Shown here: piece by piece, positions 27,494 to 29,649 of the stretch
How positions within the stretch are numbered: the first letter of the stretch is position 1
Layout: the number at the start of each line of letters is the position of its first letter
Assembly: GCA_965222375.1 (NCBI GenBank)
Contig: CBDCTZ010000013.1
Span: 736,001-800,000, forward strand
Direction of reading: 5' to 3'
Source of the DNA: Polyangiaceae bacterium
Lineage (GTDB): Bacteria; Myxococcota_A; Polyangia; Polyangiales; Polyangiaceae
Length of the DNA stretch: 64,000 nt
Translations under genes and position numbers: made by a program
The notes under the pieces: model-generated
What the model was told of the DNA's origin: nothing
The model's database searches: none
The model's input: the letters and a program-made list of their open reading frames with translations, nothing else

Positions 27494-27766
27494 ACGACCT
27501 GGCGACGATTCGCACCGAGGCCGCCCGTGGCCCCAGGAGATGTGATGGGGTGGCTCGTGACCTGGTAGGTAGCCGCCGAGGCGTCTTTCGGATGCGGAGG
27601 GCTGCCATGGTGGCCGTTCTGCATACGGTGTTCGCTTGGGCGCCGGACGCGCGAGCGATGGCTTTGCGCGAGGCGACAGTGGCTGTCTCCTCATTAACGA
27701 GGTCACCGGAAACCGGGCCTCAATCAACAGACGCGCTCAAAGGCGCAGTGATTAGAGGAGACAGCC

Positions 27767-28795
27767 ATGGAGCATATTGGAGTCGATCTGGGTGGAAAAC
27801 AATCGCAGGTGTGTGTGCGGGCCGCGGACGAAGGAATTCTGCTGGAGAAGAGGATCGCGACCAGCAGTTTGATGTGCTTCTTTCAGCACCAGCCCAAGAG
27901 CCGAATTGTACTGGAAACGTGTTCGGAAGCATTCCGAGTCGCCGACTGGGCTCTGGAATGTGGACACGAGGTGCGTGTGGTCCCAGCAACGTTGGTGCGC
28001 AGTTTGGGGGTCGGGGCTCGAGGCATCAAGACCGACCGGCGCGATGCGCAGGTCCTCAGCGAAGTCTCGTGCCGTATCGACTTGCCATCGGTGCACATCC
28101 CGGCGGAGCAGGCTCGCGACAGACGCACGATGTGCGCAATGCGCGAGCAACTGCTTGGTGCACGCACGGCATTGGCAAATGCAGTGCAAGGCTGGAGGCG
28201 TACGCAACTGTTGAAAATGTGCTCCGGCGAGCCCACGACCTTGCCCACACGCCTCCGCGCTGCAGCCCTCGCTCATCCCGATGGATTGCCGCAGCACGTC
28301 GAGCGTCTTTTGCAGGCCATCGAAGCTCTCAACGTGCAGATCAAGGAAGCCAACGAGGAGCTCAGGGCCCTGGCGAAGAAGGACCCAGTCTGTCAGCGTC
28401 TCATGACGGTGCCCGGTATCGGTCCGGCAACCAGCATGCGCTTTGTGGCAGCACTCGACGACAGGACACGTTTTCCGAGCGCTCACTCTGTCGAAGCCTT
28501 TCTTGGGCTGACTCCGGGCGAGAAATCCAGCGGCGATCGTCAGCAACGGCTCGGGATCACCAAGGCCGGACCGGCGATGGTGCGCACCAACTTGGTGCAG
28601 GCGGCGTGGACCTTTCGGCGTACACGGCCCAACGACCCAATGTCCAAGTGGGCAGAGCAAATCGAGCAACGCCGTGGCAAATTCATCGCTACCGTGGCGT
28701 TGGCCCGCAAACTAGCTGGCGTGCTCTTCGCGTTGTGGCGCGACGGCTCTGTATACGAGCTCAACCATCGAAAGGCAGCGCAAACCGTGGCGTAG
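27767..28795 (+). CDS. IS110-family DEDD recombinase/transposase
   Basis: IGVDLG, VLET, KTDRRDA, VPGIG, GLTP...SSG...ITKAG, VALARKL; GAGGAG RBS. Confidence 0.96.
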   Translation: MEHIGVDLGGKQSQVCVRAADEGILLEKRIATSSLMCFFQHQPKSRIVLETCSEAFRVADWALECGHEVRVVPATLVRSLGVGARGIKTDRRDAQVLSEVSCRIDLPSVHIPAEQARDRRTMCAMREQLLGARTALANAVQGWRRTQLLKMCSGEPTTLPTRLRAAALAHPDGLPQHVERLLQAIEALNVQIKEANEELRALAKKDPVCQRLMTVPGIGPATSMRFVAALDDRTRFPSAHSVEAFLGLTPGEKSSGDRQQRLGITKAGPAMVRTNLVQAAWTFRRTRPNDPMSKWAEQIEQRRGKFIATVALARKLAGVLFALWRDGSVYELNHRKAAQTVA

Positions 28796-29140
28796 AAAAC
28801 CTCCAGACTCCGGCAGCCCACAAGGTTGACCTGAGAAAGCCAATCAACGGCTGTCCAGAGGCGGTGAGCGCGTTACTCTCGCTCCAGGCGTCCAGCGAAA
28901 GCTGGCCACGACCTTGTCACGGCGATTGCGCCCCGCCAACGGACCTCCACCTATGCGCCATTGCGAGCGCGAATAGTCGATTCAGACAGCCCGTTCTTGG
29001 TTTCCTCGTCTTCCGACAAGCCACGACCGCGAATAGTCGATTCAGACAGCCTGAGCTGGACTTTCTCCCCAACCAACGCGCTGCCGACGAAGAACTCCCC
29101 TCTACCTCAGGGCGACGGACCACTTTGTTCTGGACGGACA
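28796..29140 (+). ncRNA. Putative bridge/seek RNA region of the IS110 element
   Basis: Contains ATAGTCGA (identical to the element right end) twice and TACTCTC (reverse complement of target GAGAGTA). Confidence 0.6.
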
Positions 29141-29225
29141 GGCCACCCCATAGTCGAGAGTAGTGGCCTTGGGCCGAGCAGTGAACCGACCCCAAATTCA
29201 AGAGTCCATGGGTGGCTAGCTGCGA

Positions 29226-29649
29226 CTACGGGCCGCAGTACTCGGTAGCATCCTCGGTGCGTAGCGCGAGCTCGGCGTCGCGATGAACGTCGAACCACGC
29301 TGTACCCAAGTCGATGCTCGAGAGCTCGCCGGTAGTGGCATCTACCAAGAGGGGTGTTCCGGCTTGGATCCTGCCGATGACGTGGTGCTCGCCGTCGCGA
29401 ACGCCCAGCAGCTCCAGGGGCGCCGTGCACTTGCGCCAGGATTCGTGTCCAAAATGGGTGGCGCCGCCGGGTGGAAGCGGATTTGTCGACGTCGAAGACA
29501 TCACGGAATTCGTCGAGGCGCAGCGACAGCACGCGACCCCGGCACAGTACCAAGATCTCATCTTGCCCAAAGAGCGTGTGTACCTTGTCGCTGACCAGAG
29601 CGTCGCACGGCGCATCGGGCTAAGCGACCCACCGGCTACCACCGAGTAG
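29226..29649. pseudogene. Two back-to-back 3' gene remnants; the plus-strand piece resembles a DUF4291 C-terminus
   Basis: Plus: VDVEDITEFVEAQRQH...LILPKERVY to stop 29649. Minus: protein-like C-terminus to stop 29226. Neither has a convincing start. Confidence 0.4.

Follow-up and report, generated by a model that had tools for sequence, protein, structure and literature searches.

A doubled donor-guide and closing-strand module in the predicted bridge RNA gene of a recently mobile IS1111-type insertion sequence

Introduction

Bridge RNAs, or seekRNAs, are being engineered as programmable recombination tools, and knowledge of bridge RNA structure derives mostly from IS621, an element of the IS110 group.

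The described systems closest to the locus reported here are the seekRNAs of the IS1111 elements ISEc11, ISPa11, ISKpn4 and ISPst6 (Siddiquee et al., 2024; PMC11187229), which are encoded in the non-coding region downstream of the transposase gene. Elements of the IS1111 group have subterminal inverted repeats of 7–17 bp with short terminal extensions, a layout given in both PMC11187229 and PMC11208160; in the elements of Siddiquee et al. the left extension is 7 nt and the target is not duplicated. As described there, a guide complementary to the top strand is followed, in the 3′ direction, by one for the bottom strand, and their matches meet or overlap where insertion takes place. All of these features recur at our locus. 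Table 1 of PMC13604230 gives lengths of 82–96 nt for the short and 148–172 nt for the long seekRNAs of these four elements, to be compared with 78 and ∼152 nt here. Unlike the elements of PMC11187229, our locus has two copies of a module comprising donor guide and closing strand, a left non-coding end that, at 229 nt, is long too, another repeat as its target and an RNA that is predicted from sequence.

The bridge RNA of IS621 (Durrant et al., 2024; PMC11208160) likewise carries target and donor guides in one RNA, two for each DNA and one for each strand. In contrast to IS621, the predicted RNA described here lies at the opposite end of the element, with the guide order reversed. Its donor guide is placed in a multiloop, as PMC11208160 notes for many IS1111 orthologs, rather than in the simple internal loop of IS621, and no shared core dinucleotide could be fixed: CGA follows both left guides, and the left end starts with AGA. 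ISPpu9 and ISPpu10, which target REP sequences (PMC12288879; 10.64898/2026.03.19.712850), resemble our element in occupying one position, in one orientation, of a multi-copy intergenic repeat with GC-rich palindromic parts, although the repeat family is a different one.

Duplications beside IS110 transposase genes also have a described counterpart. The loci of 10.64898/2026.08.14.744561 carry local non-coding tandem duplications with a left-donor match in each unit, as ours does. The units described there measure 50 bp or more, are alike to at least 95% and expand the locus, whereas the duplication described here lies inside the guide-RNA gene, doubles the guide and has only 28 nt still alike. 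In a full-text literature search, figures and preprint supplements aside, no doubled guide inside a bridge RNA was described, and the search returned no report of a tandem duplication in an IS1111 seekRNA. The system is of a known type, an IS1111-type bridge/seek RNA, and what is new is the doubled donor-guide and closing-strand module within a mobile element.

Results

An active IS1111-type insertion sequence

The window, by which we mean the whole 64-kb stretch of DNA analyzed, contains an active IS1111-type insertion sequence of the IS110 family. It was delimited as the block common to all of its copies when these are compared with 76 empty target sites, and its parts are as follows.

27529–27537, forward strand: left half of the target site, GGCC followed by CCAGG, from the empty-site comparison
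27538–29154, forward strand: the whole IS1111-type insertion sequence, 1617 bp
27545–27554, forward strand: left subterminal inverted repeat ATGGGGTGGC, 7 nt inside the left end
27680–27767, forward strand: hairpin over the ribosome-binding site and start codon of the transposase gene, with perfect 13-bp arms (27680–27692 and 27755–27767)
27767–28795, forward strand: transposase gene, 342 amino acids, an IS110-family RNA-guided DEDD recombinase by Pfam, NCBIfam and PDB matches
29142–29154, forward strand: right subterminal inverted repeat GCCACCCCAT (29142–29151) and its 3-nt extension AGT, the last 5 nt equaling the donor guide
29155–29196, forward strand: the target's right half, CGAGAGTAG-TGGCC...CGACCCC, which belongs to a genomic repeat of at least 81 copies

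The transposase open reading frame matches PF01548 (E = 2e-11) and PF02371 (E = 2e-22), both passing the Pfam cut-offs, and the NCBIfam model NF033542 with 245.3 bits against a cut-off of 140. The nearest solved structures found by a PDB search are the ISCro4 and IS621 transposases (IS621 chain, E = 1.2e-8). Its translation contains GLTPGEKSSG, which, read directly rather than by alignment to the published logo, corresponds to the GL-P----S(T)G motif with the conserved Ser-Gly given for IS1111 transposases in PMC11187229. Residues 122–261 additionally match an NCBIfam model for TIGR-Tas RNA-guided endonucleases at 40 bits, below its cut-off of 100, and show a weak PDB match to TasH (E = 2e-4).

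Seven full copies of the element are present in the genome, together with an eighth that another insertion has split and a short remnant of a right end. Over 27537–29163 no difference separates the full copies and the two halves of the split one (100% identity), so the element, including the internal duplication described below, moved very recently. The halves of the split copy (G000:C16:335328-336102, L009, and 338143-339051, L008) are separated by ∼2 kb of other DNA and overlap by 8 bp (28288–28295), as the target duplication of a second mobile element would. The solo right-end remnant (L011, G000:C14:932103-932160) aligns over 53 nt with three differences and still abuts CGAGAGTAGTGGCC.

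The element has 359 nt of non-coding sequence downstream of the transposase gene, compared with 229 nt upstream. The arms equivalent to those of the transposase-start hairpin covary in relatives, and in several of these the 5′ arm adjoins the left inverted repeat; the hairpin probably serves as a translational control against read-through transcripts. We considered pairing between this hairpin and the RNA described below through the common heptamers GGCTGTC and GACAGCC, and rejected it on finding that both helices vary independently in relatives.

Insertion into a genomic repeat

A first search returned six element-free sequences resembling the right flank, from which a target pattern was built. 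It matches the genome 81 times, 42 forward and 39 in reverse, compared with 0 and 1 matches for the reversed-pattern control. Seventy-six of the 81 matches are empty sites, which are intergenic and have the form GGCC-N5-CG(A/G)GAGTAG-NGGCC-N10-25-CGACCCC, usually followed by an A/C-rich run. A search of six empty target sites against Rfam gave a single sub-threshold sRNA match, which lies elsewhere in one locus.

Comparison of eight left and nine right junctions with the 76 empty sites places the last base of the element at 29154 (...ATAGT), so that the following CGA belongs to the start of the target flank. The initial annotation had equated ATAGTCGA in the repeat with the element's own right end at 29150–29157; the letters do match, but with the element ending at 29154 the CGA is contributed by the target. 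On the left, G27537 was assigned to the target, since only then do occupied sites keep the 5-nt spacing of empty sites. Insertion is thus site and orientation specific and proceeds without target duplication, preserving the spacing in which GGCC and 5 nt precede CGAGAGTAG. The subterminal inverted repeats are 10 bp long, with extensions of 7 nt on the left and 3 nt on the right, a layout common to 13 relatives, in which the left repeat reads ATGAAGTGGC or takes similar forms. Candidates for a core dinucleotide shared by donor and target (CG, GA and GT, as well as a single C) were discarded, each failing at some junctions. Several relatives (the flanks of L023, L027, L042 and L068) reside within short host tandem repeats matched by their guides, among them a run of the hexamer GTCGTG in L023 and CTGCAAATCAGGTGGTCC units in L027.

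A predicted bridge RNA downstream of the transposase gene

From its conserved helices and guides, the segment 28796–29154 is predicted to be the bridge (seek) RNA gene of this active element, and its RNA would be expressed and would bind the transposase. The proposal in the initial annotation of an IS110-family bridge RNA region whose repeat holds a donor guide is thereby borne out, for the IS1111 group and for the left donor, with guides that covary with donor and target in relatives. Rfam gave no family match within 28796–29154 at E values up to 10, and a search for a promoter-like site for the RNA gene found none.

Relatives were collected in two sets. A protein search covered 200 genomes of the order, from which 15 loci were examined; a DNA search covered 382 other genomes of the family, in 29 of which the downstream region is conserved, and 16 loci were examined from these matches. 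The parts of the RNA gene are listed below in their order along the forward strand.

28845–28855, forward strand: 5′ strand of the closing helix P1, CAACGGCUGUC, with an outer extension, P0, back to ∼28826
28860–28937, forward strand: target-binding domain, 78 nt, closed by P2 (28860–28870 with 28929–28937)
28874–28881, forward strand: right-target guide UACUCUCG, complementary to CGAGAGTA at 29155–29162
28917–28927, forward strand: left-target guide UCACGG (28917–28922), then constant CGAUU, from cognate tests
28945–28953, forward strand: single-stranded multiloop segment, candidate right-donor guide
28954–28971, forward strand: hairpin P3 (UGCGC with GCGCG)
28968–28991, forward strand: repeat copy 1, comprising the end of P3, the left-donor guide AAUAGU (28972–28977) with CGAUU, and the P1 3′ strand GACAGCC (28985–28991)
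28992–29015, forward strand: tail 1, 3′ strand of the outer closing helix in the form common to relatives
29028–29051, forward strand: repeat copy 2, comprising the same donor guide (29032–29037) with CGAUU, and a second GACAGCC (29045–29051)
29052–29075, forward strand: tail 2, alternative 3′ strand of the outer closing helix

In our model a single RNA would be closed by a long helix, P0/P1, that encloses a target-binding stem-loop and a multiloop. The internal loop of the target stem-loop would present two guides, one complementary to the right flank and the other sense-identical to the left flank. The multiloop would comprise P3 and then the left-donor guide, AAUAGU-CGAUU, which is positioned between P3 and the 3′ strand of P1. 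The domain closed by P2 is 78 nt long and that closed by P1 ∼152 nt.

This model is supported by covariation. Over 26 sequences, 88.2% of the cells in the three helices are paired, compared with 79.2 ± 0.7% in column shuffles and 31–39% with a slid partner strand, and changes on both sides are found in 17 of the 25 helix pairs, compared with 8.5 in shuffles; a 14-sequence version was also made. The individual helices behave as follows.

P1 closing helix: 80.1% of cells paired, both-side changes in 8 of 11 pairs
P2 target stem: 92.3% of cells paired, both-side changes in 8 of 9 pairs
P3 small hairpin: 98.5% of cells paired, both-side changes in 1 of 5 pairs, three pairs invariant

It is the innermost pair of P3 that covaries (CG in 19 sequences, GC in three, UA in two). 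RNAalifold, run on 14 sequences, placed a GUCC/GGAC helix in the position of P1. This was dropped, as its four pairs never vary, and P1 was kept because 8 of its 11 pairs change on both sides. A further pairing suggested earlier, between AGCGCG (28965–28970) and CGCGCT (29077–29082), is real at the level of complementary letters, but the two segments are unpaired with each other in every fold and AGCGCG belongs to P3. In all 26 aligned sequences GAGCGCG forms the 3′ arm of a local hairpin.

Guides track target and donor

The right-target guide follows directly after the 5′ strand of P2 and comprises 8–10 nt matching, as the reverse complement, the right flank of the element concerned. In the window, TACTCTC (28874–28880) had already been recognized as the reverse complement of GAGAGTA; the match in fact extends to 8 nt, with TACTCTCG the reverse complement of CGAGAGTA. 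The longest exact cognate matches in 11 elements are 8, 8, 8, 7, 9, 10, 7, 4, 3, 12 and 4 nt, a set without L029 and L031, which are misaligned, and L042, which has no flank. The corresponding 121 non-cognate pairs have a mean of 3.12 and a maximum of 6. From the second set of relatives the guide was extracted in nine loci and not in seven further ones; seven of the nine match over 6–9 nt, and L054 and L060 do not.

A clean left-target guide had eluded the initial annotation. We identify it as UCACGG at 28917–28922, which tracks the flanks both here and in relatives. It lies directly before the 3′ strand of P2 and consists of about six bases in the sense of the left flank, followed by constant CGA(U/A)U. 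In relatives the cognate mean is 4.36 and the non-cognate mean 2.72, with 4.1% of non-cognate pairs reaching the cognate median. Within the genome, CACGG matches the eight occupied sites at 3, 3, 4, 5, 5, 3, 4 and 4 of five positions (mean 3.88), compared with a mean of 1.89 at the 76 empty sites; the occupied mean was reached in 0 of 20000 random draws. On the right, all nine junctions read CGAGAGTAG, compared with CGAGAG in just 45 of the 76 empty sites.

The left-donor guide follows the element's own right end. Of 30 elements, 29 have as their final five bases on the right the same five that follow P3, in three states: ATAGT in 24, ATACT in four (L024, L052, L055 and L068) and ACAGA in one (L029). 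The exception, L031, has one mismatch. We assign AAUAGU-CGAUU as the left-donor guide because it has the sense-strand sequence of the element's final five bases and of the flank's first bases. For a right-donor guide, no cognate signal was found at 28945–28953 (cognate mean 3.86, non-cognate 3.49); by eye, a 3-nt block in this candidate seems to follow left-end positions 5–7.

The donor-guide module is duplicated

The 24-bp direct repeat first seen at 28968–28991 and 29028–29051 is exact and occurs exactly twice in the window. No further 24-mer match is present in the window at up to three mismatches, and matches arose in 0 of 100 shuffles. In register, at a 60-nt offset, the two units are 82% similar over 44 nt (28964–29007 versus 29024–29067). 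Their heads are identical at 27 of 28 positions, and beyond the head the likeness does not rise above that of shuffles. Tandem Repeats Finder, run on the repeat region, reported nothing.

The repeat is present in all eight element copies of the genome. Alignment of these copies, a check proposed at the outset, shows that the number of units is constant as well, and an assembly artifact is countered by independently assembled contigs that also carry the duplication. A 649-nt contig from another sample, run X3, which may come from the same study as the assembly, covers 28700–29159 with no differences and no gaps. A contig from run X6, which bears a different organism label and has five differences, covers both copies without a gap (28962–29055); the four of its differences that are listed fall within the spacer, leaving both heads unchanged. 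Short contigs from runs X5 and X8 end before copy 2 and are uninformative on the duplication. The earlier suggestion of an array-like expansion is not upheld: there are just two units with one and the same guide, and their number is invariant among the eight copies. We also rejected the 36-bp spacer as a guide for another locus, as it occurs only in the eight element copies and has no other match in the genome.

In 29 of 31 relatives the module GCGCG-(A/G/C)AUAGU-CGA... is found, each time exactly once; L022 and L030 have none by this pattern. In 15 of 16 relatives 113–127 nt separate the module from the right end; the corresponding values here are 127 nt (copy 2) and 187 nt (copy 1). Copy 1 retains the family context both upstream and downstream. 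Considered together with the distance of copy 2, this makes insertion of ∼60 nt by tandem duplication the simplest history; such an event would have added a second P3 end, a second donor guide and a second 3′ strand for the closing helix. The head is identical at 22 of 22 positions to that of L041, at ∼51% protein identity, and is nearly invariant across the family.

One relative from another genus, L051 (1413–1520, G315:C1), itself among the 29 with a single module, carries an independent and perfectly tandem duplication of a 54-nt unit at 85% identity, which starts inside the donor guide and comprises part of that guide and the closing strand. In L054 (G297:C135) it is the last 25 nt, CTGGACTGTGAGGCCACCCCATAGT, that are tandemly duplicated, with one change in the second unit. 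A transposase-based scan for close relatives in a collection of genome contigs found nothing. The two-module pattern ATAGTCGANT...GCGNATAGTCGANT gave one match in genome contigs, which is unrelated, and none in metagenome contigs; these patterns cover ATAGTCGA-type guides at that spacing, in collections that may exclude the window's own genome. The exact 23-mer likewise had no match in metagenome contigs. L048 (DFGB01000055.1) was set aside as an unrelated repeat, GCGCGGCTTCAGCCGCGCATAGTCGAATAA, of a Verrucomicrobia MAG that shares the ATAGTCGA word by chance.

Two possible closures of one RNA

Two alternative donor loops had been suggested for the repeat. That the same guide precedes each copy of the closing strand is correct, but the arrangement is one of a single 5′ strand with two alternative 3′ closing strands. 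The duplex of tail 1 with 28824–28848 has a computed energy of −17.2 kcal/mol, with 11 of 1000 shuffles as good, and that of tail 2 with the same strand −20.9 kcal/mol, with 0 of 1000 as good. For two downstream control segments paired with the 5′ strand, 528 and 354 of 1000 shuffles are as good. When the P1 strand is included, the whole duplexes have −27.0 kcal/mol for copy 1 and −27.6 kcal/mol for copy 2. In the full-length ensemble P1 forms on copy 2 with a probability of 0.96–0.99, with a penalty of 3.2 kcal/mol for forcing it onto copy 1; if the RNA is cut ahead of copy 2, it is computed to fold into the canonical shape. Copy 1 is the first to appear in transcription. Closure on copy 1 would give an RNA of ∼150 nt, as in all relatives, and closure on copy 2 a domain of ∼210 nt with two donor guides in its multiloop.

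We examined two possible relationships of the tails and discarded both. Homology between the sequences of tails 1 and 2 does not exceed that of shuffles, and the likeness of CCCCAACCAA within tail 2 to the CGACCCCAA part of the target repeat was not borne out, cognate (6.3) and non-cognate (6.4) pairs being indistinguishable when the region after the module is scored against distal flanks.

Discussion

The reading that we consider best, and judge to be probably correct, is that of a bridge RNA gene with a tolerated tandem duplication, a mutational by-product. It is the most likely one because copy 1 already completes a canonical RNA. The duplication would then be neutral, and the variant with a doubled donor guide is apparently rare and harmless. 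There is a possible precedent in ISEc11, for which the short 82-nt seekRNA, with the target matches in it, was enough to support transposition (PMC11187229). Judged by its length, this RNA may lack the donor-binding part, and if it does, a change in the donor part of our RNA may also be harmless.

As to origin, it is possible, though not the history we favor, that the recombinase itself produced the duplication. The DNA of the guide is a copy of the left-donor half-site, and the resident recombinase with its RNA might occasionally make local tandem duplications there; such an origin is compatible with both a tolerated duplication and a two-state RNA. In its favor, 10.64898/2026.08.14.744561 describes tandem non-coding units beside IS110 transposase genes (n = 468) with unit boundaries enriched for left-donor-only matches, and proposes one-sided reactions of the resident recombinase, but the units of that study were required to be at least 95% alike. 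The unit boundary in L051 falls within 2 nt of the guide's junction between AGU and CGA, and in L054 the 25-nt right end is itself tandemly duplicated, yet with the window this makes three cases only. In the window CGA marks the start of both units and also of the sequence that follows unit 2 (29085); a 3-nt microhomology of CGA is, however, equally expected from replication slippage, and the boundary here lies 8–13 nt upstream of the half-site rather than at it.

Less probable than a tolerated duplication, and offered tentatively, is that both copies are under selection, as parts of a two-state RNA whose compact form (closed on copy 1) and extended form (closed on copy 2) would tune or stage transposition, for example by separating excision from insertion or by self-limitation. 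There are hints, which speak against plain neutrality, that both copies have been kept: like heads, tails that are unlike yet pair, the preference of the ensemble for copy 2, and differences in the X6 contig that are confined to the spacer. The heads match at 27 of 28 positions and the tails are not detectably alike, which speaks for this reading; however, the head is so nearly invariant in the family that its identity need not mean selection after the duplication, and a hybrid origin from two diverged relatives would give unlike tails without selection. Each tail is independently complementary to the 5′ strand, the two complete duplexes differ little in energy (−27.0 and −27.6 kcal/mol) with the ensemble favoring copy 2, and the duplicated element has spread to eight sites, although 29 relatives work with a single copy. 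The X6 variant retains both heads, but its differences lie within 7 nt and may be a single event. L051, in another genus, has independently duplicated the same part of the RNA gene (54 nt), but its units are evenly 85% alike, with no differential constraint. It appears doubtful that the RNA switches between a compact and a two-donor-guide form and that L051 reflects recurrent selection rather than a mutational hotspot. We therefore rank a by-product, which we hold to be the probable explanation, ahead of a functional two-state RNA, which we regard as rather unlikely.

That the repeat is not RNA at all, being instead a protein-coding repeat, a CRISPR-like mini-array or a chance repeat, is extremely improbable: two overlapping open reading frames of 94–95 amino acids do cover it (28961–29248, forward strand, and 28917–29201, reverse strand), but both extend beyond 29154 into flanks that differ between copies, the spacer is confined to the eight element copies with the same “guide” in both units, the sole Rfam CRISPR-repeat match (E = 9.1) lies inside the transposase gene, and chance is excluded by the shuffles.

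With a tolerated duplication as the preferred reading, the locus provides a fully mapped natural RNA of the IS1111 type, in which target guides, left-donor guide and helices are backed by covariation. The target repeat, with at least 81 copies, constitutes a natural series of matched and mismatched sites on which specificity may be studied. An element with a doubled module has transposed at least eight times very recently, which points to a site in the RNA that tolerates ∼60 extra nucleotides and would be useful for design. If both copies matter, this would be the first example in nature of a bridge RNA that adopts alternative conformers.
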